From Patescibacteria group bacterium (GTDB lineage Bacteria > Patescibacteriota > Minisyncoccia > Phycocordibacterales > DATDSR01): 58,776 nucleotides of DNA. The translations under genes were made by a program, and so were the position numbers. The notes under the pieces were generated by a model. The model was not told the DNA's origin and ran no database searches. It saw nothing but the letters and a program-made list of their open reading frames with translations. The DNA is taken from the NCBI GenBank assembly GCA_038062165.1, contig JBBTXQ010000018.1, forward strand, positions 1 to 58,776, read 5' to 3'. The stretch's first letter is position 1. Each line of letters opens with the position of its first letter. Below, one piece after another: positions 4,614 to 46,330 of the stretch.

Positions 4614-4880
4614 ATGTCAGTTATCAAACGCCAATATCTCACGGAACGCTCTAGTCTTCTTTCAGAAAAAGGCATATATTCTTTCGTTGTCACAAGTGAG
4701 GCAAATAAAAGTGAAATTGCTAAGGCCTTAGAAACTAAATATAAAGTTAAGCCCATAAACGTGCGAGTAATTAATACCAAAGGCAAAGTTGTGGTCAGGG
4801 GTTACAAAAAGGGTCGCAAAGCGGGTATGCGCAAGGCTTATGTTAAATTTCCAGCCGGTACTAAAATAGAATCTGTTTAG
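4614..4880 (+). CDS. rplW: 50S ribosomal protein L23
   Basis: Size, position and KSEIAKALETKYKVKPINVRVIN match L23. Confidence 0.9.
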   Translation: MSVIKRQYLTERSSLLSEKGIYSFVVTSEANKSEIAKALETKYKVKPINVRVINTKGKVVVRGYKKGRKAGMRKAYVKFPAGTKIESV

Positions 4881-4904
4881 TTCGACTACGCTCACTATAA
4901 ATAA
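4878..4904 (+). promoter_or_regulatory. Conserved 27-nt intergenic motif TAGTTCGACTACGCTCACTATAAATAA, copy 1 of 3
   Basis: It begins with the rplW stop codon and ends 2 nt before the rplB ATG. Near-identical copies lie at 14027-14053 and 14444-14470. Confidence 0.5.
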
Positions 4905-4906
4905 TC

Positions 4907-5755
4907 ATGAAGAAATACAAGCCAACAACTAAATCTCGCCGCGCTATGACTGGTATTAATTACCGGGAAGTTCTGTCGGGTGACAGGCCACACAAGGCTC
5001 TTGTCTCGGGTGGCAAGCGTAGGCAAGGCCGGGCCAGTTGGGGCAGGATCACTATGCGTCACAAGGGCGGCGGTTCTAAACGCTTGTTTAGAGATGTTGA
5101 TTTTATGTACGCCAAGAAGGATATCCCTGCCCGTATTGAGACACTTGAATACGATCCAAACAGAAGCGGCTTCGTAGGACGTGTCGTTTATGCTGACGGT
5201 GAACGAAGTTATGTGCTCCTGCCCACGACACTTAAAGTTGGTGATTCATTTGTAACGGGCGAGAAAGTGGCTATTAAAGTGGGCAACCGCTTACCTCTTA
5301 AAAATATTCCTACTGGCACATTTGTTTTTAATATAGAGTTGCAACCAAAGGGTGGTGCCAAACTTGTGCGCTCTGCAGGCGTCTTTGCTGAAGTACTTGC
5401 CCGTGACGGCGGTTTCGTTAACGTACGCATGCCCAGTTCCGAAATACGCAAGATTGATGAGAACGCCTGGGCCTCGATTGGTTCTGTTTCGAATCCAGAA
5501 AACATGCTGGTTAACTATGGCAAAGCCGGCAGATCACGCTGGAAAGGCATCCGTCCCACAGTCCGTGGCACAGCTATGAACCCAGTAGATCATCCATACG
5601 GCGGAGGTGAAGGTCGCCAGGGCCGTGGTACCAGACGTGCCAAAACGCGTTGGGGCAAACCGGTAGGCAAAGGCCAAAAGTCCCGCCGCCCCAAGAAGTA
5701 TAGCAACGTATTTATAGTCTCAAGACGCCGCGTCGGCAAGAAGAAAACTGTCTAG
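4907..5755 (+). CDS. rplB: 50S ribosomal protein L2
   Basis: GRITMRHKGGGSKR...TVRGTAMNPVDHPYGGGEGR. Confidence 0.95.
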   Translation: MKKYKPTTKSRRAMTGINYREVLSGDRPHKALVSGGKRRQGRASWGRITMRHKGGGSKRLFRDVDFMYAKKDIPARIETLEYDPNRSGFVGRVVYADGERSYVLLPTTLKVGDSFVTGEKVAIKVGNRLPLKNIPTGTFVFNIELQPKGGAKLVRSAGVFAEVLARDGGFVNVRMPSSEIRKIDENAWASIGSVSNPENMLVNYGKAGRSRWKGIRPTVRGTAMNPVDHPYGGGEGRQGRGTRRAKTRWGKPVGKGQKSRRPKKYSNVFIVSRRRVGKKKTV

Positions 5756-5764
5756 TAATTGAGA

Positions 5765-5795
5765 AACGGCCCGACAATTGCCGGGCCGTTCTTTG
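5765..5795. terminator. Hairpin between rplB and the convergent orphan gene
   Basis: aacggcccg-acaattgc-cgggccgtt followed by cttt. Confidence 0.6.
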
Positions 5796-5810
5796 ATCGC
5801 GGGCGACGGG

Positions 5811-6095
5811 TCACATCCCCATCCCTCCGTAAGGGGGAGGGTGGTAGGGTGACCTATAGGCTTCCTCGTTGGCCTTCTTTATCGCTGCGGCAATCCGGAG
5901 CTGCTCGTCTTCTGGCAGTCCAGAGAACCACACCTCGAGCTCGCGCACTGCGCGCATGCCGAGGTAGACAAGGGCGACCCCGCCGAGAGCGAGAACAACC
6001 CAGAATCGCCACCAGCTCTCCACGTTGTAGAACGCCCCGGTAAGTGTCCCCACAGTTACCGCGGCGGCAAGCACGACGTAGCCGATTGTTCTCAT
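5811..6095 (-). CDS. Hypothetical small membrane protein (GC-rich orphan, 94 aa)
   Basis: Two hydrophobic helices (IGYVVLAAAVTVGTLTGAFY, FWVVLALGGVALVYLGM). A purine-rich SD-like AAGGGGG lies upstream. A hand count gives 35/60 G+C in 5811-5870. Confidence 0.55.
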   Translation of the reverse strand: MRTIGYVVLAAAVTVGTLTGAFYNVESWWRFWVVLALGGVALVYLGMRAVRELEVWFSGLPEDEQLRIAAAIKKANEEAYRSPYHPPPYGGMGM

Positions 6096-6448
6096 GACCT
6101 ATGGACCCCCTTCCCTTTCCAAACAGCTGCGCACCCGTTTGAGTATAACGCAACAGAGCCCTCGCTGGTAGTGAGAGCTCTGTCCAGCTTAGGGCATGGA
6201 TTAAGAAGTTCATATTTGTTGTGGATTGGTTGGTAATATCGATTTTCGCTTGACAGGTTATTTATTTGGGTATAGTCTAGATATACATGAATCGTTTTGT
6301 CATAACTTCCCGATCGATTTGCATTGAGACCTCAACTAAGATGTGGGGTATGTTTTCCCATTTCTATTTTAAACAACATATGCGCGGGTAATTAATACAT
6401 AAATTAGTAAGCAAGAACCCCGCGCAGAAATGTGTGGGGTTCTTCTTT

Positions 6449-6815
6449 TCCCGAGGGGAGGGATCATCAGTACTGATCTCCCCCCGGGGCAAGTGCTCTC
6501 ACGACACCAATTGGTGCGTGATAGGTCTTTGAGGCTAATCCCGACATTCTGTCGGGACGCCCGATCAAAAACACAGTTTTTGATTTAGGGAGGTCTTTAT
6601 GTGCGTGAGGCGTTGTGAGTTGCCGTGGGTGCCCGGTTCGTCTGACCCGTGTAGCATCCCGGAGCATCTCCGAGGCAGTGCCCCAAGCGAACCTGGCCCT
6701 GACTCCAGAGAGGAGGAGGTTTCCCGGCGTGAGGACGGGTTGTCTACACCCGGTCCAGCCTATTTCCCCGAGGGTGCTCTCTAGCTTCACCCCCTCCGAC
6801 ATCTGTCGGAGGGGC
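6449..6815. repeat. GC-rich cluster of local hairpins/palindromes (non-coding)
   Basis: Hairpins at about 6449-6489, 6500-6520, 6539-6558 (tcccgaca-ttc-tgtcggga), 6562-6586, 6734-6752 and 6789-6812 (cccctccgaca-tc-tgtcggagggg). The string tttccc(c)gaggg...gtgctctc recurs at both ends. Confidence 0.4.
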
Positions 6816-6858
6816 AACTTGCAAATTATTAGGTTAAGAGTAGTTTTATGGACATGAG

Positions 6859-6936
6859 TCCCGTTAGAAGCTTCGGGATTCACGCCACCATGCTACATAT
6901 TATCAACGCCAAATATAGTGTTAGCTTCTAACGGGA
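6859..6936 (+). repeat. Start-codon hairpin element, copy 1 (13-bp stem TCCCGTTAGAAGC / GCTTCTAACGGGA)
   Basis: Perfect 13-bp stem. The 3' arm ends on the A of the pepA ATG. ATGAG flanks both sides (6854-6858 and 6936-6940). Confidence 0.6.
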
Positions 6937-8294
6937 TGAGAATAATTAACAAAGACAAGTTAGGGAAAGGCCTGCCTGCCGGCAGGCAGGAGTACAAAAA
7001 GGCTGATTTTAAGGACGCAAATAGCTTGCGTAAATTTGTTTTGGCTGTACGCAAGGCTGTGGCTGATGCCAAGAAAGACAAGATGAAAAAAGTGGCAGTT
7101 ATCCTGAAAGAGATTCACAAGTTCGGGATTGGCGAGAGAGAATTGGGTGAGATAATTGCTCGCGAGGTACTGATTGCTGATTATGAATTTACTAAATACT
7201 TGAGCAAGCCAAAAGAGGGCTGGAGCTTTATTTCTGGATTTGCTCTTATCGGTAAAGTTAGTAAGGAGTTTAAGGTGGGAATTGAGAGGGGCAAAATAAT
7301 TGCGGGAGAAGTTAACATGACTCGCGAGCTGGCTAATACTCCGGGTGGCGAGATGGTTCCCAAGACTCTTGCCTTAGCCGCTCGAGAAGCAGTTAAAGAT
7401 TTGCCCAACACAAAAATAACAGTACTTGGCAAAAAGGAACTTGAGAAGCTGGGGATGGGAGCAGTGCTCGGTGTAGCCAAGGGCTCGCCAGAAGAGCCGC
7501 AATTTATTGTTGTGGAGTATCGCCCCCTAGCCCCCTCTTATGATAAGAGGGGGAACAAAGGGGGAGATATCGTTCTGGTTGGCAAAGGCGTGACCTTCGA
7601 TACTGGGGGACTCAATCTCAAGCCTACTGATGGCATTAACGACATGCACTTGGATATGTCCGGTGGTGCGGCTGTGATACACGCTGTTGCACTTGCTGCT
7701 AAACTTGGTGTGAAGAAAAATATAGTGGCGCTTGTGCCCGCGGTTGAGAACATGCCCGGAGGTTACTCATATAGACCCGGCGATATTCTTAAGTCGTTAT
7801 CTGGCAAAACTATTGAGATCAAAAATACTGATGCTGAAGGCAGAGTAATTCTCGCCGACGCTCTCACCTACGCCAAGAAGTTTAACCCAAGATTAGTTAT
7901 TGATGTCGCAACTCTAACTGGCGCGGCTTGTGTCGCCCTTGGCGAACGCGCCTCGGCTATCTTCACGCGTGATCAAGAGCTTGAAAAGTTGACGAGGGAA
8001 CTGGGAGAGAAGTCAGGCGATTATGTTTGGCCGATGCCCATGTGGGAAGAGTATGAGAGTGAAGTGAAGGGAACATTCGGCGATGTAGCTAATCTTGGCA
8101 AGAAGGGCAGGATGGGCGGAGCAATCTCGGGCGCAATGTTCTTACTGCAATTCACCAAAGATTACCCCAAAAGTACAAAGTGGATGCACATAGACATGGC
8201 CCCCACAATGACAGCTACAGACGACGAGTTTCTAGCCAAAGGAGCCAAAGGCAGTCCCGTCAAGCTCCTGCTTGCCTTGATTGAGAGTTACTGA
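6936..8294 (+). CDS. pepA: Leucyl aminopeptidase (M17 family)
   Basis: VLVGKGVTFDTGGLNLKP and NTDAEGRVILADAL M17 signatures. I prefer the ATG at 6936 over the GTG at 6918 because the same cttctaacgggATG junction precedes rplV and rplN. Confidence 0.9.
   Translation: MRIINKDKLGKGLPAGRQEYKKADFKDANSLRKFVLAVRKAVADAKKDKMKKVAVILKEIHKFGIGERELGEIIAREVLIADYEFTKYLSKPKEGWSFISGFALIGKVSKEFKVGIERGKIIAGEVNMTRELANTPGGEMVPKTLALAAREAVKDLPNTKITVLGKKELEKLGMGAVLGVAKGSPEEPQFIVVEYRPLAPSYDKRGNKGGDIVLVGKGVTFDTGGLNLKPTDGINDMHLDMSGGAAVIHAVALAAKLGVKKNIVALVPAVENMPGGYSYRPGDILKSLSGKTIEIKNTDAEGRVILADALTYAKKFNPRLVIDVATLTGAACVALGERASAIFTRDQELEKLTRELGEKSGDYVWPMPMWEEYESEVKGTFGDVANLGKKGRMGGAISGAMFLLQFTKDYPKSTKWMHIDMAPTMTATDDEFLAKGAKGSPVKLLLALIESY
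7518..7569. repeat. 52-nt nested palindromic element inserted in frame in pepA
   Basis: tatcgccccct-ag-CCCCCTCTTA-tg-ATAAGAGGGGGA-acaa-agggggagata. All four blocks (44 nt) are identical to recG 45293-45342. Confidence 0.7.
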
Positions 8295-8317
8295 AAGTTT
8301 GTAGAGAGACATTCGTC

Positions 8318-8548
8318 GTGTATAATATGAAAGTGAAAACACTTAACTGGACAAACGTAATAAAGAAATACAAGGGACTATGGGTTGGATTCAAGAACGA
8401 CAACAGGACCGTTATCGCTTCTGGTAGAACTCCAGCTGAAGTTATTAAGAAGGCAAAAAGTAGCGGATATGAAAATCCAATACTTTTCAGAGTGCCCAGC
8501 AGGCTAGTTGCCTTCGTTGGGATAATAGATGAAATTTCCATACGCTAA
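8318..8548 (+). CDS. DUF5678-like small protein (the ATG at 8327 is a possible start)
   Basis: KYKGLWVGFKNDNRTVIASGRTPAEVIKKAKSSGYENPILFRVP fits the KGKWVAI...a-helix...RVP pattern of DUF5678 proteins, as recalled from memory. Confidence 0.65.
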   Translation: MYNMKVKTLNWTNVIKKYKGLWVGFKNDNRTVIASGRTPAEVIKKAKSSGYENPILFRVPSRLVAFVGIIDEISIR

Positions 8549-8936
8549 ATTTGGTAGAGTTGGGAGTGAAATTATTAAACGCCCCGTTGTTCCAATTGAA
8601 GTTAAATTTGAAGATGAAACCGTCCTTTACGATGCCTTGATAGACTCCGGAGCGGATATTTGTATATTCGATGCTGCAATTGGCGAACAACTTGGTATCA
8701 ACATAATTTCTGGAATCCCAATTGTTTTTGGTGGAGCTGAATATTCCAAGGGTTCTGCGGCATATTTGCATCAAGTCAAAATAAAGATTAAAAATAAAGA
8801 AATAAAAACGCAAGTTGCCTTTACATACAACATCGCTAACCATGGTCATGGCCTTTTGGGGCAAAAAGGGTTTTTCGATAAATTTGCAATCAAATTTGAT
8901 TATTCCAATGATGTTGTAGATATTAGTTCCAGATAA
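8529..8936 (+). CDS. Retropepsin-like (clan AA) aspartic protease
   Basis: Catalytic LIDSGAD motif plus downstream GLLGQKGFF. 135 aa. It overlaps the preceding small gene by 20 nt. Confidence 0.75.
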   Translation: MKFPYAKFGRVGSEIIKRPVVPIEVKFEDETVLYDALIDSGADICIFDAAIGEQLGINIISGIPIVFGGAEYSKGSAAYLHQVKIKIKNKEIKTQVAFTYNIANHGHGLLGQKGFFDKFAIKFDYSNDVVDISSR

Positions 8937-8939
8937 AAT

Positions 8940-8990
8940 ACCAAAGGCAGCCCGGTCAAACTCCTACTTACCATCATTGAGAACTTTTAG
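8940..8990 (+). pseudogene. Displaced duplicate of the pepA 3' end
   Basis: It translates to TKGSPVKLLLTIIENF* against the pepA C-terminus AKGSPVKLLLALIESY* (8244-8294). Several of the nucleotide differences are synonymous. Confidence 0.6.
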
Positions 8991-9033
8991 GCCTTTTTTT
9001 GAAAAGAAATTAGCCCGCGATGTTTGGTCGGGG

Positions 9034-9288
9034 CTAAAGGTTCCCGGTCTCGTCTTTGATTTTCTCCATTATTCGCACTGGAATCGCATTTTCCTTAAGA
9101 CAGTCACACTTATCAAGTTGTGTGCCAGCAAGTTTGCTGGCATGTGGTAATTGCCATTCCATATTAAGCGTTTGGCGGTCTCTAATTCGCAACAAAGGCA
9201 AGTGCCTTACGCCGTTGCAAACGATGTAGTGATAGCACTCACCGGCCTGATAAGCTAGGAATACCCGTATTTCCGAATTTCCTTCCAT
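9034..9288 (-). CDS. Hypothetical protein (orphan, 84 aa)
   Basis: aaGAGGAGGAGGT lies immediately upstream of the ATG. A hairpin and T-run follow the stop. I recognise no family. Confidence 0.5.
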   Translation of the reverse strand: MEGNSEIRVFLAYQAGECYHYIVCNGVRHLPLLRIRDRQTLNMEWQLPHASKLAGTQLDKCDCLKENAIPVRIMEKIKDETGNL

Positions 9289-9319
9289 ACCTCCTCCTCT
9301 TGTTCAAGTATACACTCTC

Positions 9320-9348
9320 TTGCGTGGTAATTGCTTGCGTGATAGGAT
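9320..9348 (+). promoter_or_regulatory. Candidate promoter restarting rpsS transcription
   Basis: TTGCGT, 17-nt spacer, TAGGAT, with TG 1 nt upstream of the -10 box. The same gtgaTAGGATa box occurs at 13747-13752 upstream of rpsZ. Confidence 0.4.
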
Positions 9349-9395
9349 AGCCTTCGTCCCGCGTAGCCTTGTGCGAAGTGGGACTCACGTCTATT

Positions 9396-9740
9396 ATGTC
9401 ACGATCGTTATACAAAGGCCCTTACGTTGACCCACGTGTTACTAAAAAAATAGTGGGGAAAGATCCGATGAAAACCGGCCTTATTAAGACTTGGGCTAGA
9501 GATAGCGTAATTAGTCCTGACATGGTTGGTTTTGCCTTCGGTGTGCATAACGGTAAAGACTTTATTGAGGTGAAAGTAGTTGAGGAGATGGTTGGACATA
9601 GACTGGGCGAATTTTCCCAGACTCGCAAATTTACTAAACATGGTGGCAAGATGCAGAAGGAGCAAGAGTTAAAGGCTAAAGAAGCCGAGATTGCCTCGGC
9701 CAAATCTGCCAAAGAAGCAGGCGAAGCCGCAAAAAAGTAA
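9396..9740 (+). CDS. rpsS: 30S ribosomal protein S19 with a Lys/Ala/Glu-rich C-terminal tail
   Basis: SRSLYKGPYVD...GHRLGEFSQTRKFTKHGG, followed by a low-complexity tail of about 30 aa. Confidence 0.9.
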   Translation: MSRSLYKGPYVDPRVTKKIVGKDPMKTGLIKTWARDSVISPDMVGFAFGVHNGKDFIEVKVVEEMVGHRLGEFSQTRKFTKHGGKMQKEQELKAKEAEIASAKSAKEAGEAAKK

Positions 9741-9760: not shown

Positions 9761-9841
9761 TCCCATTAGAAGTATGTCTCAATTAAGTCACTGCGATATG
9801 TCAGGCGTATATACAATTAACGTAAGTAACTTCTAACGGGA
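9761..9841 (+). repeat. Start-codon hairpin element, copy 2
   Basis: TCCCATTAGAAGT...ACTTCTAACGGGA. ATGAA flanks both sides (9756-9760 and 9841-9845). A uORF runs 9756-9836. Confidence 0.6.
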
Positions 9842-10173
9842 TGAAAGCGAGTTTAAACAATTATAGGCAAGCTCCACGAAAAGTCAGATTAGTAACAGAT
9901 CTTATTAAGGGCAAGAGCGTAGAGAAAGCCAAAACAGAACTTGCGCATCTCTCTAAACGCGCTTCTACGCCTATTCTTAAACTTTTAAATTCAGCGATTG
10001 CTAACTCAAATTTAAATTTAAATGAGAGTGATAAAAATAACTTGTTTATAAAAAGTATTAGCGTAGACAAAGGGATTGTCTTGAAAAGGAGTATGCCACG
10101 CGCTCATGGTCGCGCATTTCCAATACACAAGCACACGTCGCACATCAAGTTAGAATTAGCCAGAAAATCATGA
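9841..10173 (+). CDS. rplV: 50S ribosomal protein L22
   Basis: NYRQAPRKVRLVTDLIKGKSVEKA...MPRAHGRAFPIHKHTSHI. Confidence 0.9.
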   Translation: MKASLNNYRQAPRKVRLVTDLIKGKSVEKAKTELAHLSKRASTPILKLLNSAIANSNLNLNESDKNNLFIKSISVDKGIVLKRSMPRAHGRAFPIHKHTSHIKLELARKS

Positions 10174-11541: not shown

Positions 11542-11621
11542 TCCCATTAGAAGTATAGTTATATAATGTCAATAAACATGTCAAATTTACACACAATTAA
11601 CGTAAGTAACTTCTAACGGGA
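11542..11621 (+). repeat. Start-codon hairpin element, copy 3
   Basis: It has the same arms as copy 2 and the shared internal block ACAATTAACGTAAGTAACTTCTAACGGG. It starts right after the rpsQ TAA and ends on the A of the rplN ATG. Confidence 0.6.
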
Positions 11622-11989
11622 TGATTCAACCACGAGCAATAGTAAAAATAGCTGACAACACCGGAGCCAAAATTGGGCGTATTTTCAAAGTGCTCGGCGG
11701 TTCTAAACGCAGATACGCTCGCGTAGGCGATTTGGTTGTGCTATCTGTCCAAACAGCCGAACCTCGTAAGATGGCCAAGAAGAAGGAAGTGCATAGGGCC
11801 GTGGTTGTGAGGCAAAGGGCCAACATGCGCCGTTCTGACGGATCTTATATCAGGTTTGATGAGAATGCAGTTGTGCTAGTTGACGTTAAGAATGAACCTA
11901 AAGGAGCACGTGTTTTCGGTCCTGTGCCTAGAGAGTTAACAGAAATGGGATTCCAGAAGATAGCCTCACTTGCGCCAGAGATTGTATAA
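11621..11989 (+). CDS. rplN: 50S ribosomal protein L14
   Basis: [17 protein letters not shown]...[10 protein letters not shown]. Confidence 0.95.
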
Positions 11990-13843: not shown

Positions 13844-14029
13844 GTGGCAAAAAAGAGCACAATTGCACGGTCGAAACGGACGCCTAAGTACAAAAGTCGC
13901 GTGGTGCGACGTTGTTTCAGATGCGGCCGCAAACGCGCTTATATGCGTGACTTTGACATGTGTAGGATATGTTTCCGCGAGGCGGCAAATGAAGGACGTA
14001 TCCCCGGCATTAGAAAAGCATCGTGGTAG
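13844..14029 (+). CDS. rpsZ: 30S ribosomal protein S14, type Z (zinc-binding); GTG start
   Basis: MAKKSTIARSKRTPKYKSRVVRRCFRCGRKRAYMRDFDMCRICFRE; 61 aa with CxxC...CxxC. Confidence 0.9.
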   Translation: MAKKSTIARSKRTPKYKSRVVRRCFRCGRKRAYMRDFDMCRICFREAANEGRIPGIRKASW

Positions 14030-14053
14030 TTCGACTGCGCTCACTATAAATAA
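14027..14053 (+). promoter_or_regulatory. Conserved 27-nt intergenic motif, copy 2
   Basis: TAGTTCGACTGCGCTCACTATAAATAA. It starts at the rpsZ stop codon, and the rpsH ATG follows 3 nt later. Confidence 0.5.
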
Positions 14054-14056
14054 ACT

Positions 14057-14446
14057 ATGGATCAAATTTCTGACATGTTAATTAGAATCAAGAATGCCGG
14101 TAGCGCCCGGCAGGATTCTACAATTGTGCCTTATTCTAAACTTAAGTTTGAGATTGCGAATGTTCTATTGAGTGAAAGTTATATCAAATCTTTTTCGGTT
14201 AAAGGTAAAAAAGTACGCAAGCACATAGAAGTAGAAATTGCTTATCGAGACGATGGCTCTGTTCGCATAACTGATGTTAATCGCATTTCTAAATTATCAA
14301 GACGCGTTTATCTTGGTGCTAAAGATATCAGACCCGTTAAACAGGGCACTGGCCTGCTCGTGCTCTCTACCCCCAAGGGTATCCTGTCAGGCAGAGATGC
14401 CCGCAAGCAGATGGTCGGAGGTGAAGCGTTATTTAGTATCTGGTAG
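14057..14446 (+). CDS. rpsH: 30S ribosomal protein S8
   Basis: DQISDMLIRIKNAGSAR...GTGLLVLSTPKGILSGRDARK. Confidence 0.95.
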   Translation: MDQISDMLIRIKNAGSARQDSTIVPYSKLKFEIANVLLSESYIKSFSVKGKKVRKHIEVEIAYRDDGSVRITDVNRISKLSRRVYLGAKDIRPVKQGTGLLVLSTPKGILSGRDARKQMVGGEALFSIW

Positions 14447-14470
14447 TTCGACTACGCTCACTATAAATAA
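14444..14470 (+). promoter_or_regulatory. Conserved 27-nt intergenic motif, copy 3
   Basis: TAGTTCGACTACGCTCACTATAAATAA. It starts at the rpsH stop codon, and the rplF ATG follows 2 nt later. Confidence 0.5.
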
Positions 14471-21225: not shown

Positions 21226-21229
21226 GATT

Positions 21230-21265
21230 AATGATGAAATGTTAAAATTTGCAATTTGCAAACAA
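21230..21265 (+). repeat. Left 36-bp terminal inverted repeat of a 1.07-kb two-gene element
   Basis: aatgatgaaatgttaaaatttgcaatttgcaaacaa matches the reverse complement of 22268-22303 at 35 of 36 positions. Confidence 0.8.
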
Positions 21266-21288
21266 TGATTTGGGGAAAATGAGACAAT

Positions 21289-21816
21289 GTGCAAATGGGC
21301 AATTTGAAAACAATGAACGAAATGAAAAAATTGCAGAAACAAAATGTTGGCAACGCCGGGGAATATTACATAGCCGCTAGACTTTCGGCGCTCGATTTTA
21401 CAGCAACTATCACACTTGGGCGAGCTGAAAAATACGATATACTGGCGCTAAGTCCAACAGGTAGATTGGTAAAAATTTCCGTTAAGACAACTCAGATTAA
21501 CAATGCGACCAATTTTCCTTTGTCAGCCAAGGATGAGAAAGGTGAGGCGGATGATTTTTATTACGTATTCGTAAAGCTTTACAATTTTGGCAAAGAGCCC
21601 GACTTCTGGGTCATACCAAGCATAGTGGTTTGCCCAATTGTGAAACAATCTGACGAGATTTGGCTAAAAACTCCCGGAAGAAATAACTCGGAACATAAAA
21701 TGACGACAATGAGAATATTGCCGATTGAAACAAGAGGAGGAGAAGTACAACTGTTTCCAAGAAACTGGAACGAGGAAATTAAGAAATATTATAAAAACCT
21801 AGATCAATTATTATAG
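21289..21816 (+). CDS. Hypothetical protein, PD-(D/E)xK (Hjc/restriction-endonuclease-like) fold suspected
   Basis: GNAGEYYIAARL...EKYDILALSPTGRLVKISVKT fits an E...D...(S/E)xK nuclease core. The start is uncertain (GTG 21289 or ATG 21295). Confidence 0.55.
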   Translation: MQMGNLKTMNEMKKLQKQNVGNAGEYYIAARLSALDFTATITLGRAEKYDILALSPTGRLVKISVKTTQINNATNFPLSAKDEKGEADDFYYVFVKLYNFGKEPDFWVIPSIVVCPIVKQSDEIWLKTPGRNNSEHKMTTMRILPIETRGGEVQLFPRNWNEEIKKYYKNLDQLL

Positions 21817-21822
21817 CCTCCA

Positions 21823-22194
21823 ATGACCTATGATTTGGAAGAACGTACCAGGAAGTTTAGCAAGGCGGTGATTGAATGTTTGCGGAGTTTGCCGAAAGAT
21901 CAGATTAATCTCCCGCTCGTGAGTCAGTGTGTGCGGGCCGCTACTAGTGTTGGTGCGAATTATCGAGAGGCGAATGCTGCCAGTTCAAAAAAGGACTTTA
22001 AGAACAAGATTGCTATTTGTCGCAAAGAAATTCGTGAGACAAAATATTGGTTTGAACTCTTGTCTGACGCAAATCCTAAGGAAAAGGTAACACTAGACAA
22101 ATTATATGACGAAGCCCGTCAACTTGATTTAATCTTCAATAAAATCTATAGTTCTGTAGGTGGATTTGAGAGATTTGATAATCCACCTAAATGA
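21823..22194 (+). CDS. Four-helix-bundle protein (23S rRNA intervening-sequence protein / Avd-like family)
   Basis: DLEERTRKFSKAVIECLRSLP...CVRAATSVGANYREANAASSKKDFKNKIAICRKEIRETKYWFELL is typical of the TIGR02436-type family, as recalled from memory. Confidence 0.8.
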   Translation: MTYDLEERTRKFSKAVIECLRSLPKDQINLPLVSQCVRAATSVGANYREANAASSKKDFKNKIAICRKEIRETKYWFELLSDANPKEKVTLDKLYDEARQLDLIFNKIYSSVGGFERFDNPPK

Positions 22195-22267
22195 GCTAAT
22201 GAGAAATGTGCAATTTGCAAACAACGACTTTAATGAACAAAGTTTTTAAAAATTTATCATTTGCACC

Positions 22268-22303
22268 TTGTTTGCAAATTGCAAATTCTAACATTTCATC
22301 ATT
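22268..22303 (-). repeat. Right 36-bp terminal inverted repeat
   Basis: See 21230-21265. It ends on the base before the ATG of the next gene. An extra partial direct copy (atgtgcaatttgcaaacaa) lies at about 22206-22232. Confidence 0.8.
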
Positions 22304-22912
22304 ATGTCTGTAGACAGACATTCACATTTTAAGATTAAGATTGCTATTTCGGGCGCGGCCGAGACTGGCCACTTAACAGAATCTGCTACGCTTATGGCCG
22401 AAGAACTTGGCCGTGAGGTTGTGCGTCAAGGGGCTATTCTTGTCACGGGCGCTACCACAGGCATTCCACTTTGGGCCGCTAAGGGTGCAAAGGAAGAGGG
22501 CGGCACTTCGATAGGTATATCACCTGCTCTGGGCGAGCGCGAACATGTAGAGCAATACGGCTTGCCACTCGACTACATGGACCTGATTATGTTCACCGGG
22601 CAAGGTTATTCCGGACGCGATATTCTTATGACCCGCTCATCTGATGCCGTAATAATATGCGCAGGCAGGATTGGCACGATACACGAGTTCACTGTTGTGT
22701 TCGAGGATCACAAGCCTCTGGGGATTCTGGAAGGAGACTGGTCAACAGATGACATAATCAAAGAGATTATCGAGAAGAGTAATCGGGCAAATGAAGATAA
22801 GGACATAGTCTACGACTCTGATCCTAAAAAATTAGTTGAAAAAGTGATAAAGATGGTTAAAGAATCTAAAATAGAATATTACAAGGCACCTAAAGTTACT
22901 AAACTCAATTAA
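22304..22912 (+). CDS. TIGR00725/LOG-like Rossmann-fold protein
   Basis: KIAISGAA...AEELGREVVRQGAILVTGATTGIPLWAAKGAKEEGGTSIGISP...SDAVIICAGRIGT. Confidence 0.65.
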   Translation: MSVDRHSHFKIKIAISGAAETGHLTESATLMAEELGREVVRQGAILVTGATTGIPLWAAKGAKEEGGTSIGISPALGEREHVEQYGLPLDYMDLIMFTGQGYSGRDILMTRSSDAVIICAGRIGTIHEFTVVFEDHKPLGILEGDWSTDDIIKEIIEKSNRANEDKDIVYDSDPKKLVEKVIKMVKESKIEYYKAPKVTKLN

Positions 22913-43726: not shown

Positions 43727-46330
43727 CTATTCGAAATGGTGGTTCTGTGAGATGAGACGCTCGGCAAGGAGTGGGTGATTTGCAAGCGCGGGATCAGATT
43801 CGAGGATCGCGCGGGCTTCGGTTCTTGCCGCTTCTACCATTTTCAGATTTAGCAATGCTTCCATGCCCACGTCAGAGATGCCAGACTGTTTGATGCCAAC
43901 AAGTGAACCCGGGCCGCGCAGTTTGAGATCTTCTTCGGCCAGATCAAATCCTGATTTTGCTTTTTCGATAGCCTTCAAACGTGCCGATGTGGTACCTGCC
44001 CCGAGCGTAGTCGAGGGGAAGAGATAGCAATGTGCCTGATAACTTGAGCGCAACACCCGCCCTCTTAATTGGTGCAACTGGGCTAAGCCGAATCTCTCTG
44101 CCCCTTCTATGATAATTATTGTGGCGTTGGGTACGTTCACGCCCACTTCGATCACACTTGTCGCCACCAGAATGTTTATTTCGTTGTTGGCAAATTCGCT
44201 CATGATCTCATCTTTTTCTTTAGCCGACATTTTTCCATGTAGCGAAGCTACAACCAATTCTGGAAAAATGTTTAGGCCCAATTTCTCTGTCTCGCTCATG
44301 ACGTCTTTAGTTTCGAGCGCAAGTTCTTTTTCTGGATCGGGCTCGCTTATTCTGGGGCAGATTACGTATGCTTGTCGGCCAGATTTTATTTCGCGCCTGA
44401 TATGCTCGTACACATTTGCTCTCTCTTTTGGTTGAACTATTTTAGTGATAATTGGTTTGCGGCCGGGTGGCGACTCATCAAGTAGAGTCAAATCCAGATC
44501 TCCATAAATTGTGAAGGCGAGTGTGCGCGGGATAGGCGTAGCCGTCATAGATAAGAGATGCGGAACAAACGCGGAACTATGCGGAATTGACGCGGACGGG
44601 GAACGGGCTTCGTCGTAAACCAAACGTTTTATATCTAATTGTGTGGGGCCGAAATTGACTATGAGGGCCAGTTTATATTGTGATCCTTTAAGGTATTTCC
44701 ATGTTTGAGACGCTACTGTATCACCTAAAAATGGGAGAGCCTTGAGCTCAACTATTACTGAATCCTCGACAAGAAAATCAGGTTGATACAACCCAATCTT
44801 CTTCTCCTTATAGTAAATATCAATTCTTTTTTCTCTAGCAAACTGAAGACCGATCCGTCGGAATTCTTCCTCTAGTGCTCGTTGATAGACAACCTCCGGG
44901 TGACCACCTCCAAGTGTTTTGCGAACCTCGAATGCCGCACCACGTATTTTGTACGTAAGTTGTTCGTACAACAACTCCGTCTTTTCTTTGTTTTGTCTCC
45001 CTTCCGCATTGTTCAGCGTTTGGTCCGCGTTTCTTCCGCGAGCAACGAGCAAGGCTCGTTGCTCTACTCCGAAGCGGTGCTGTTCGTCGATGATTGATAG
45101 GGCCAACTTTTTGAACTTAACAGATTCCTGAATGAGGGCGTGTGTGCCAATCACGATGCTCATCGAGCCGTCAGCAATCCATTTGAGTAATTGTGTGCGC
45201 GATATGTGAGTGCCTGCTCCGAGCGTAATCGAGGGGTGGTTAATTTTTGAGGGAAACTTGCGACATTCACTGCCCGTGAGCAGGCCTATCTGTATCGCCC
45301 CCTCGATCCCCCTCTTACCATAAGAGGGGGAAGGGGGAGATAGGAGTGAAATGAAGCTTTCGAAATGCTGCTTGGCCAGGATCTCTGTGGGGGCCATATA
45401 GGCGACCTGCAAATTATTTTGAATTACAGCATGTGCCGCCGCCGCGGCAACATAAGTTTTGCCCGAACCGACATCGCCTTCAAGTAAGCGCATCATGGGG
45501 TGCGCTCTACCCATGTCATTTAAGATAATTTCAAGGGCCCAGTTCTGTGCTTGGGTGGGCCTGAAGGGGACTTCTAACTTGTCCTTGCTCGATATCTTGT
45601 ATGCCCCAGCCGTTTCGTATTCGTTGCGCGCCTTCTGCCTTGCAATCTGAATGAAGAAAATTTCTTGAAACGAGAAGCGCTTCCTGGCCGCCCGCGCGTC
45701 ACTCTCTCGCTTGGGGCTATGTATATATATGAGTGAGTGAGCAAGCGACGGTAATTTGTACTTCGTCAGAATATCTGTAGGGATCGGATCCCTATGTCTA
45801 TGTTGCTCTACAATCCCAGATTTGAGAACTTTTTGAATCGCATAAGTGAGCCAGAGGCTTGAGATGCCACGGGATTCAGGGTAGACGGGAACTAAGTTAC
45901 CGGGTAACCCCCGGTTACCCGGTAACTGGGAACTGAATAGAGGACCAGATAAATCAGTATCACTGGCAAGTTCTATTGCGGGATTAGTGAAACTTCGTGA
46001 GCCTTTGTACTCTTTAGATTTTCCAGATAGCCTAACAAGAGCGCCTTCAGCGAACTTTTTGGCCATATAAGCCTGACTAAACCAAATTGCTTTAACTTTC
46101 TTGCCCGAGATATCCTCAAGCGTCATCTCGGCAATTGCGACGCGCTTATGCCAACCCTTGCGTGTGCCTTGCGATACTACCTTGGCTATCACGCTCTCCT
46201 CGTGCGATGCGTAGCGAGCAGGGAAGTGGTGCAACAAATCATGAACAGTCAAGAGCCCCAGCTTCTTAAGCCCCCGCCTCTGCGCGTCTTTGAGTCGGAA
46301 GTGATTTTCTAGTTTATCGTTTGGAGTCAA
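43727..46330 (-). CDS. recG: ATP-dependent DNA helicase RecG carrying in-frame insertions; TTG start
   Basis: GDVGSGKT, DEQHRFGV, MTATPIPRTLA and QLHQLRGRV helicase motifs. At 867 aa it looks longer than typical RecG because of the inserted segments. Confidence 0.9.
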   Translation of the reverse strand: MTPNDKLENHFRLKDAQRRGLKKLGLLTVHDLLHHFPARYASHEESVIAKVVSQGTRKGWHKRVAIAEMTLEDISGKKVKAIWFSQAYMAKKFAEGALVRLSGKSKEYKGSRSFTNPAIELASDTDLSGPLFSSQLPGNRGLPGNLVPVYPESRGISSLWLTYAIQKVLKSGIVEQHRHRDPIPTDILTKYKLPSLAHSLIYIHSPKRESDARAARKRFSFQEIFFIQIARQKARNEYETAGAYKISSKDKLEVPFRPTQAQNWALEIILNDMGRAHPMMRLLEGDVGSGKTYVAAAAAHAVIQNNLQVAYMAPTEILAKQHFESFISLLSPPSPSYGKRGIEGAIQIGLLTGSECRKFPSKINHPSITLGAGTHISRTQLLKWIADGSMSIVIGTHALIQESVKFKKLALSIIDEQHRFGVEQRALLVARGRNADQTLNNAEGRQNKEKTELLYEQLTYKIRGAAFEVRKTLGGGHPEVVYQRALEEEFRRIGLQFAREKRIDIYYKEKKIGLYQPDFLVEDSVIVELKALPFLGDTVASQTWKYLKGSQYKLALIVNFGPTQLDIKRLVYDEARSPSASIPHSSAFVPHLLSMTATPIPRTLAFTIYGDLDLTLLDESPPGRKPIITKIVQPKERANVYEHIRREIKSGRQAYVICPRISEPDPEKELALETKDVMSETEKLGLNIFPELVVASLHGKMSAKEKDEIMSEFANNEINILVATSVIEVGVNVPNATIIIIEGAERFGLAQLHQLRGRVLRSSYQAHCYLFPSTTLGAGTTSARLKAIEKAKSGFDLAEEDLKLRGPGSLVGIKQSGISDVGMEALLNLKMVEAARTEARAILESDPALANHPLLAERLISQNHHFE
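44558..45040 (-). mobile_element. In-frame GxxExxY-family (PD-(D/E)xK-like) ORF insertion between RecG helicase motifs II and III, bounded by inverted GCGGAA-type repeats
   Basis: Insert reads LLYEQLTYKIRGAAFEVRKTLGGGHPEVVYQRALEEEF...QPDFLVEDSVIVELKA...LALIVNFG. Flanks 44558-44601 and 44999-45040 are inverted repeats (core gcggaaSaaacgcggaMc, 16/18). Confidence 0.65.
45293..45342. repeat. 50-nt nested palindromic element inserted in frame in recG (antisense to the gene)
   Basis: tatcgccccct-cgat-CCCCCTCTTA-cc-ATAAGAGGGGGA-agggggagata has the same four blocks as pepA 7518-7569. It encodes LSPPSPSYGKRGIEGA in RecG. Confidence 0.7.

Follow-up and report, generated by a model that had tools for sequence, protein, structure and literature searches.

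A short nested palindrome in frame in pepA and recG of a Patescibacteria contig: a cross-phylum family and its linkage to DUF559 genes

This report concerns a palindromic element of about 50 nt, two copies of which lie in frame in the genes pepA and recG of a Patescibacteria contig. The DNA analysed is a stretch of 58,776 nt (hereafter the window), to which all positions refer unless a locus is named. The two copies belong to a family with members in six or more phyla and on viral contigs; these members often lie in frame within genes and are tightly linked, whichever of the two is taken as the starting point, to genes of the DUF559 endonuclease family. The ~50-nt form is the smallest of a modular series, the largest members of which carry the DUF559 gene. 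The likeliest reading is that DUF559 units of about 0.5 kb gave rise to the window copies as non-autonomous miniatures.

Results

The two copies in the window

The elements, their parts and the two host genes are as follows.

6936..8294, + strand: pepA, M17 leucyl aminopeptidase, 452 aa from the ATG; the insert is residues 196-211
7518..7569, + strand: element copy 1, 52 nt, in frame in pepA, encoding (Y)RPLAPSYDKRGNKGGD; linkers TAG / AACAAA; layout TATCGCCCCC-TAG-CCCCCTCTTA-TGA-TAAGAGGGGG-AACAAA-GGGGGAGATA
7518..7527, + strand: outer left arm of copy 1, TATCGCCCCC; its first bases TAT are the invariant Tyr codon of the EY motif
7531..7553, + strand: inner hairpin of copy 1, CCCCCTCTTA-TGA-TAAGAGGGGG, the core common to the whole family
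7560..7569, + strand: outer right arm of copy 1, GGGGGAGATA, pairing with 7518-7527 save for a G.A mismatch at position 5
43727..46330, - strand: recG, an 867-aa open reading frame (ORF); the insert is at about residues 330-347, between helicase motifs Ia and Ib, just before IQIGLLTGS
45293..45342, + strand: element copy 2, 50 nt, read on the - strand in recG as (L)SPPSPSYGKRGIEGA(I); linkers TCGAT / AA; layout TATCGCCCCC-TCGAT-CCCCCTCTTA-CCA-TAAGAGGGGG-AA-GGGGGAGATA
45308..45330, + strand: inner hairpin of copy 2, CCCCCTCTTA-CCA-TAAGAGGGGG, recognised by sequence match and folding

The first-pass annotation of the window listed four blocks common to both copies, and these stand as given (11+10+12+11 = 44 nt). 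Its nested stems are recovered when each strand is folded as single-stranded DNA: the inner stem has 10-11 bp, and the outer stem has one mismatch, at position 5. The folding energy of the copies, for either strand, is -15.7 to -19.5 kcal/mol (z -4.6 to -5.4). The inner palindrome has two matches in the window against 0.00 expected (100 shuffles). A covariance model built from 13 family members gives 58 bits (E ~1e-17) for each of the copies, and the next best match in the window has 8 bits. No other copy is present in 74 kb of the source contig, which take in the window and 16 kb outside it.

Both copies have the same orientation on the + strand, as had been stated, so that pepA has the element in sense and recG in antisense direction. 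This orientation can be defined only through the asymmetry at position 5, where the left arm has G and the right arm has A. The near identity of the encoded peptides is likewise correct: both copies are read in the same element-relative frame, which gives APSYDKRGN in pepA and SPSYGKRGI in recG. One of the three frames of the element contains TAA; the other two give PPLxxRGG or PSYxKRG.

A separate observation concerns the composition of the arms. At 7518-7569, as throughout the family, the C-rich arms (TATCACCCCC, CCCCCTCTTA) are similar to the 3' tail of 16S rRNA (GATCACCTCCTTA), and the G-rich arms look like an extended Shine-Dalgarno sequence; function or mere base composition are both conceivable.

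The host genes and the nature of the inserts

The pepA product is an M17 peptidase (Pfam, E 4e-109), and the recG product has the wedge, DEAD, Helicase_C and RecG_dom3_C domains (Pfam). The best homologues of PepA and RecG are named Candidatus Paceibacterota or Patescibacteria, and the source contig belongs to a Paceibacteria-like metagenome-assembled genome.

Both copies had been proposed to be insertions in loops that are short in homologues. Alignment of orthologues bears this out for RecG: the protein has a net 11-12 extra residues, absent from 19 of the 19 closest orthologues (up to 77% identity), and it reads FISLLSPPSPSYGKRGIEGA-IQIG where all 19 have FIxFFK-HLP-IQIG. For PepA the proposal holds with a qualification. 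The loop is 8 residues longer than in the solved structure 3JRU, but the length of the native loop is itself variable; this loop, filled by the element, runs from the invariant EY to (P)IVLVGKG and has 7-19 aa across homologues. Judged from these sequences, the insertion is less clean at pepA than at recG because of this variable loop. The element's terminal TA overlaps native codons in both genes, namely Tyr TAT and Ile ATC in pepA and Ile ATA in recG.

The loop position is also what the AlphaFold2 model of PepA (pTM 0.87) predicts, although with low confidence for the insert: residues 196-211 form a coil between the beta strands 189-195 and 211-216 at a pLDDT of ~58, and the flanks have 85-91. 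Only one homologue, P0004 (76% identity), has the element at the same PepA site. It has 10 further residues within the hairpin loop, because its element is of the loop-expanded form described below.

Some features of the surroundings may be mentioned here. The pepA gene sits in the S10/spc ribosomal-protein cluster (4907-9740), between L2 (4907-5755) and S19 (9369-9740). Relatives are arranged in the same way; in L121 a DUF6612 gene comes after pepA, and S19 after that. RecG contains a second, much larger in-frame insert (44553-45035, - strand), a PD-(D/E)XK 'GxxExxY' domain; the PDDEXK_3 domain (Pfam) covers aa 457-569, between helicase motifs II and III. This insert is bracketed by 34-nt inverted repeats (44553-44586 / 45002-45035, 85% complementary), and it looks like a nuclease module flanked by inverted repeats and translated within its host protein, in parallel to the DUF559 units.

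Breadth of the family

Genomes, one per species, were scanned with CCCCCTCTTA-N(0-12)-TAAGAGGGGG. The exact core occurs at no fewer than 120 genome loci against ~7 expected by chance (our own arithmetic, for uniform base composition), and its loop has 3 nt in nearly all of the genome-scan matches listed. The hosts among the matches listed are bacteria of the candidate phyla radiation (CPR; Uhr-, Gottesman-, Doudna-, Ames- and Zambryskibacteria, Saccharibacteria), Nitrospirota, Geobacter/Desulfuromonadales, Syntrophia, Chloroflexota, Myxococcota and Bacteroidales, at least six phyla altogether. The subtype with TATC ends, to which the window copies belong, was found at 119 or more metagenome loci, many of them from 0.1-um groundwater fractions, and the core is present in 29 viral contigs (IMG/VR).

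The first-pass annotation compared the behaviour of the element with that of the Rickettsia palindromic elements (RPE). We agree on the behaviour; the element is not lineage-specific, however, but represents the cross-phylum family just described. We found no earlier description of this family in the literature. Comparison of the consensus with curated plasmids and phages (blastn) gave no match, to which the low-complexity filter may have contributed.

The linkers are informative as well. The copy-1 signature TAG/AACAAA recurs in the metagenome locus L211, a near-identical subtype with different flanks, and the copy-2 signature TCGNT/AA recurs in L125, within the MnmA gene, where it encodes SPPSPSYGKRGTEGAI. 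Therefore, these are sublineages inherited by copying.

Considering that strand-switch replication can make palindromes and that metagenome-assembled genomes (MAG) can collapse repeats, one might ascribe the two copies to chance similarity, to independent local origin via template switching, or to an assembly artefact. We hold this to be highly improbable. Zero matches are expected by chance in the window, the linker signatures are common to copies in other genomes, and the element is found in hundreds of independent assemblies. The PepA protein, insert included, is recorded on three contigs, and both host ORFs are open with all motifs intact.

Anatomy of the element

The consensus of the flanks is (TCA)TAAC[T/G]CCCCC-n2-4-core-n1-4-GGGGG[A/C]GTTA(TGA); Saccharibacteria and the window copies have the TATC...GATA variant. 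The outer stem TA[A/T]C-N-CCCCC / GGGGG-N-G[A/T]TA encloses one to three small hairpins, and several forms can be told apart. Simple nested palindromes of 49-52 nt make up 13 of the 137 genome-scan copies. The Y-shaped form (85-100 nt) combines the core and the outer stem with a second hairpin, CCTCCCCTTA-nnn-TAAGGGGAGG. The half form has the core and a single outer arm. In the loop-expanded form, mini-hairpins of ~30 nt (GNRA, GAA or TTCG) lie within the triloop.

Position 3 of the outer stem covaries (A-T 29, T-A 6, mismatched 5). At position 5 a mismatch recurs in 24 of 40 copies, as G.A (13/40) or its strand complement T.C (11/40); both window copies have G.A. The dinucleotide TA is invariant at both element ends, and the flanks contain no direct repeat beyond TA. 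Compensatory pairing of the linker trinucleotides was also considered and was dropped, since just 4 of 39 are complementary.

Two side observations belong to the anatomy. Loop-expanded variants (~30 nt; GCAA, GAA and TTCG loops) occur in L123, L129, L135, L189, L197, L198, L226 and L238; the small hairpin modules nest in one another, and in proteins the expansion amounts to ~10 more residues, as in the PepA homologue P0004. Tandem arrays with a 170-nt period, built of the TATCTCCCCCCTG-CCCCCTCTTA-CGAG-TAAGAGGGGG variant, each followed by TTGATAGATAG..., are found in L182 (709-1072), and further arrays of this kind in L144, L199, L241, L149, L202 and L203.

The ends of the element raise the question of integrons. 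The attC R'' and R' boxes carry AAC/GTT, which the TAAC...GTTA ends resemble; the bulged stem with its strand-specific mismatch and the arrays in L028 and L066 also recall attC sites, or attC clusters without an integrase, at secondary sites. Of all the explanations considered, this is the one to which we give the least credence. The window copies and the entire TATC subfamily are without AAC/GTT, about half of the CPR copies lie within ORFs, and no integrase recurs among the neighbour genes. In L028 the array consists of hsdS 3' ends duplicated in tandem in a type I restriction-modification locus and contains no cassettes.

Occupancy of genes

A copy was counted as mid-ORF if the open frame around it has 150 codons or more, no fewer than 40 of them on either side of the copy. 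The counts are as follows.

CPR genomes: 11/22 copies mid-ORF
Metagenome TATC set: 34/83 copies mid-ORF
Other phyla: 11/112 copies mid-ORF
Viral contigs: 8/37 copies mid-ORF

Thus, 40-50% of the copies are in frame in mid-ORF in CPR against ~10% in other phyla. Within genes only the two stop-free frames are used (PPLxxRGG 51, PSYxKRG 12), and both element orientations are found. Ten host genes were confirmed with Pfam: LeuRS, transketolase, MurB, RuvB, MutL, MnmA, UvrA, ArgRS, GatA-type amidase and TrmD. The transketolase gene contains two element copies.

Whole extra domains in frame were noticed in other CPR housekeeping ORFs: NUDIX within LeuRS (L088 630-3572) and PDDEXK_3 at the N-terminus of MurB (L056 3644-5317). 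Each of these ORFs also has a palindromic element.

It is tempting to propose a host function for such a hairpin, for instance as a translational operator hiding a Shine-Dalgarno-like G-run, as an mRNA stabiliser or as a terminator, the structure being recruited repeatedly and the in-gene copies being by-products or pause sites. For many CPR half-copies an ATG is indeed found 8-15 nt further downstream, the G-rich 3' arms are Shine-Dalgarno-like, and the GNRA, UUCG and GAA mini-hairpins of the loop-expanded variants are typical of stable folds. Furthermore, among the DUF559 relatives on viral contigs, 11 of 80 (mostly the closest relatives) have other C-run/G-run hairpins just upstream. Yet the 23-nt core is found unchanged in six phyla and in dozens of genes unrelated to each other, which points to copying and not to repeated recruitment; copies occur in genes in both orientations, half of the CPR copies lying within ORFs. 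There is no terminator-type T-run, and the ATG at the element end mostly opens a short ORF (median ~18 codons). In an Rfam 15 scan of L028, L066, L056 and L015, all of them rich in elements, no family matched; the scan yielded nothing beyond chance hits of microRNA type below the threshold. We therefore regard a host function as the origin of the family as quite unlikely.

Linkage to DUF559 genes

All 239 element-selected loci (1.6 Mb) were searched for DUF559 with tblastn, and they contain 14 DUF559 genes (Pfam, E 1e-30 to 1e-36). The distance to the nearest hairpin is 0-97 nt in 14/14, usually with elements on both sides; by a conservative estimate, the joint chance probability of this adjacency is ~1e-11. 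The reverse test agrees: five of the five DUF559 homologues picked by homology and contig size alone are flanked by element-type hairpins. Among 148 randomly drawn ORFs neighbouring the elements, DUF559 is the sole recurrent Pfam family (9 members vs at most 2 for others), and no transposase, integrase or Y1 enzyme is recurrent among them.

The arrangement at some loci is that of a unit. Complementary far-left and far-right arms bracket hairpin, gene and hairpin in L171, L353 and L358, and the size of the DUF559 unit is ~0.5 kb. In L085, L090 and L012 the element end GGGGGAGTT-ATG-A provides the Shine-Dalgarno sequence and the start codon of DUF559. The same end, extended by TGA, is present at 44 of 123 element ends, most of them without a gene behind. 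We had considered the ATG of GTTATGA as a general gene start and rejected this for the short median ORF given above; the explanation that emerged afterwards is that this ATG is the start codon of DUF559.

The DUF559 profile matches PDB 3HRL (E 3e-29) and 3R3P, a 'mobile intron protein' (E 2e-4), the latter being, as we presume, I-Bth0305I. A survey of the PD-(D/E)XK nucleases puts DUF559 together with Vsr and 3R3P. Two other candidates for a partner were rejected: PDDEXK_3 (GxxExxY), which has matches in the loci without adjacency to the elements, and a full-length insertion sequence with element termini, for which just 3 incidental pairs were found in 1.6 Mb.

The main rival to the reading of the copies as miniatures of DUF559 units accepts the association but reverses its direction. 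DUF559 may be a free-standing homing-endonuclease gene that settles in pre-existing palindromes, the elements themselves being spread by some other route. The relation to a homing endonuclease, the varied layout around the DUF559 gene and the abundance of elements with no DUF559 nearby (on the window contig and at viral loci) are in favour of it. On the other hand, even in places that lack the gene, the element end includes the Shine-Dalgarno sequence and start codon of DUF559, and in some cases its first codons as well, which is better accounted for by derivation from a gene-bearing unit; the outer arms cleanly bracket the gene in the three loci named above, and no other candidate mobiliser is recurrent among the neighbour genes. 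We consider homing into pre-existing elements unlikely, though it deserves to be kept in mind.

Neighbour genes also bear on elements of the repetitive extragenic palindrome type (REP, or the paired REPIN), moved on single-stranded hairpins by an IS200-like Y1 transposase (RAYT). The elements do fold stably as single-stranded DNA, and on the same contig, 9 kb past the window, a weak Y1_Tnp-like protein (26 bits) is flanked by hairpins. The hairpin of that gene, CGAAGGTTWAACCTTCG, is nevertheless unrelated to the element and absent from the window; Y1_Tnp is not recurrent among the 148 neighbour ORFs, and the elements have no conserved 5' tetranucleotide of the GTAG/CGTC type. A RAYT origin is thus very unlikely in our opinion. 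As an observation in its own right, the gene just named, a 213-aa ORF at L351 14845-15550 with a weak IS200-like Y1_Tnp match (26 bits), has the hairpin CGAAGGTTWAACCTTCG on both sides, which is the classic RAYT/REP arrangement in a CPR genome.

Two further observations concern the DUF559 loci. In L028 (2700-4210, from a Desulfuromonadaceae MAG) a type I restriction-modification locus contains Y-shaped elements: the hsdS 3' end together with a Y-shaped element is tandemly duplicated four times (period ~220 nt) and is followed by a DUF559 gene, after which the start of hsdR is the ATG within the element end GGGGGAGTTATGATG. Most genes of the DUF559 homologues (P0243-P0360) are on contigs of 0.5-2 kb, consistent with repeats that break assemblies.

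Other repeats in the window

Inverted repeats of 37 nt (97% complementary, 1002 nt apart) at 21229-22304 enclose the ORFs 21289-21816 and 21823-22194; direct repeats of the AAATTTGCAATTTGCAAACAA type are also present there, and the segment could be a small mobile or invertible one. Two short repeat families lie just upstream of ORFs, ...GTTCGACTACGCTCACTATAAATAA at 4855-4904, 14004-14053 and 14421-14470, and ...ACAATTAACGTAAGTAACTTCTAACGGGATGA at 9798-9844 and 11578-11624. Both may be promoter or leader motifs.

Discussion

We believe it rather probable, if far from assured, that the window copies are miniature non-coding, hairpin-forming selfish elements of a family in which the DUF559 units are the gene-bearing form. 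We infer that the elements move, with DUF559 as the mover, and presume the following course. The autonomous form would be the ~0.5-kb unit, in which DUF559 has a hairpin and then an outer arm on either side. If the gene between the hairpins, which are identical, were lost, the Y-shaped form would result, and after it the 50-nt form. The miniatures would be copied in trans to new sites after a nuclease cut, probably on hairpin-folded DNA. Within genes, copies would have landed or survived only where the frame was kept, stops were avoided and a tolerant surface loop was hit; this survival filter may be strongest in the gene-dense CPR genomes.

Several points weigh against this explanation. A lone PD-(D/E)XK nuclease is incapable of strand transfer, and host repair would be needed for insertion. 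The net gain is +8 aa in PepA and +11-12 aa in RecG vs an element of 16-17 codons; therefore, the native loop was partly replaced, or it was deleted afterwards. The invariant terminal TA is a candidate target-site duplication but may simply belong to the element, and no pair of an empty and a filled site at nucleotide resolution was found. Neither the window nor 74 kb of its contig contains a DUF559 gene, so that the two window copies may be fossils. The surroundings of DUF559 are heterogeneous, the arms of some units facing the gene instead of bracketing it, and at viral loci there are elements without DUF559. Finally, the loci were picked by exact sequence match, and the family-wide proportions are biased by this choice.

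A wider proposal is more tentative, and we would put it somewhat below even chances: the DUF559 proteins could be the nucleases of an unrecognised class of minimal mobile elements, which would consist of hairpin inverted repeats and a Vsr-like nickase and have gene-less derivatives of 50-100 nt. Such derivatives would colonise intergenic DNA and, keeping the frame, essential genes in many phyla, and phages may be their carriers. The outer stem's conserved G.A / C.T mismatch would then be the recognition feature of the Vsr-like nuclease on extruded or single-stranded DNA.

The observations are of interest in several respects. Selfish palindromes written into proteins, the phenomenon of the RPE, are no longer confined to a single genus of obligate intracellular parasites but occur in a family that spans phyla. 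The tiny CPR genomes had been regarded as poor in mobile DNA; in these genomes the family is found in essential genes of translation, repair and cell-wall synthesis. For DUF559, an orphan domain met with very often, a concrete testable function is put forward, with a realistic chance that its function will be revealed, and a candidate answer is offered to the question of how miniature palindromes, including the RPE, move. There are also practical consequences for metagenomic data: the inserts add recurrent peptides (NSPQPPLKLRGG..., SPPSPSYxKRG...) able to confuse orthology, alignment and domain annotation of metagenomic proteins, and the element repeats probably break assemblies, many DUF559 genes being on contigs of 0.5-2 kb.

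Comparison with known systems

The RPE, for which no transposase is known and which were reportedly described by Ogata et al. in 2000 as elements of 100-150 bp occurring in Rickettsia only, are the closest parallel. Like them, the present elements are non-coding palindromes lying in frame in unrelated housekeeping genes, are translated as extra surface peptides and are also found in intergenic DNA. The window copies were set apart from the RPE on length and lineage (50-52 nt, a CPR host). The family as a whole differs in size (50 nt in the minimal and 85-100 nt in the Y-shaped form against 100-150 bp), in its apparently unrelated sequence, in its presence in at least six phyla and in having DUF559 as a candidate partner. 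The work of Ogata et al. is cited in a review (PMC10969869).

Bacterial miniature inverted-repeat transposable elements (MITE), such as the Correia elements, Nezha, Chunjie and the Coxiella QMITEs (PMC3184786, PMC5896051), are likewise short (<300 bp), non-coding and multicopy, with terminal inverted repeats. Some of them lie within ORFs or in frame, and the usual view derives them, by deletion, from a larger gene-bearing element that has their ends. The larger partner of the present family, in contrast, carries a PD-(D/E)XK endonuclease and no DDE or recognised transposase, and the size is well below that of a typical MITE. The Chunjie MITE of Geobacter was considered in particular and rejected, being 178-235 bp long and A+T-rich with 9-bp direct repeats.

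With the REP/REPIN-RAYT systems (PMC3116915) the family has in common that a putative mobiliser is recognised by its flanking repeats and that the miniatures far outnumber the gene. The differences are that the flanked gene is DUF559 and no Y1/HUH enzyme, and that REPs are extragenic, whereas the present elements are often within genes. The Vsr-like homing genes of the I-Bth0305I type (PMC2677866; PDB 3R3P) are similar as small selfish ORFs coding for a nuclease of the Vsr fold; this likeness applies to the large members only, the window copies carrying no ORF, unlike the large DUF559 members of their family. In classical homing a single cognate allele receives a copy of the gene; in the present family, inverted repeats with hairpins surround the gene, and miniatures that lack it are dispersed among numerous unrelated loci.

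The 'multicopy nucleotide sequences' of Geobacter should also be mentioned. They are C-run/G-run palindromes, e.g., CCCCCTCCCGTCAAGGGGAGGGGG, in intergenic regions, and one such palindrome family sits in genes without frameshifts (PMC2700814, PMC2996986). The core strings are not in the supplements of the G. bemidjiensis paper (PMC2996986); those of G. metallireducens were not searched. The Geobacter palindromes differ in their consensus, and neither paper proposes a cross-phylum spread or a partner gene.

In summary of these comparisons, a palindromic miniature inserted in frame is a known kind of element; new are the element family itself, its breadth across phyla, its modular architecture, the conserved stem mismatch and the linkage to DUF559.

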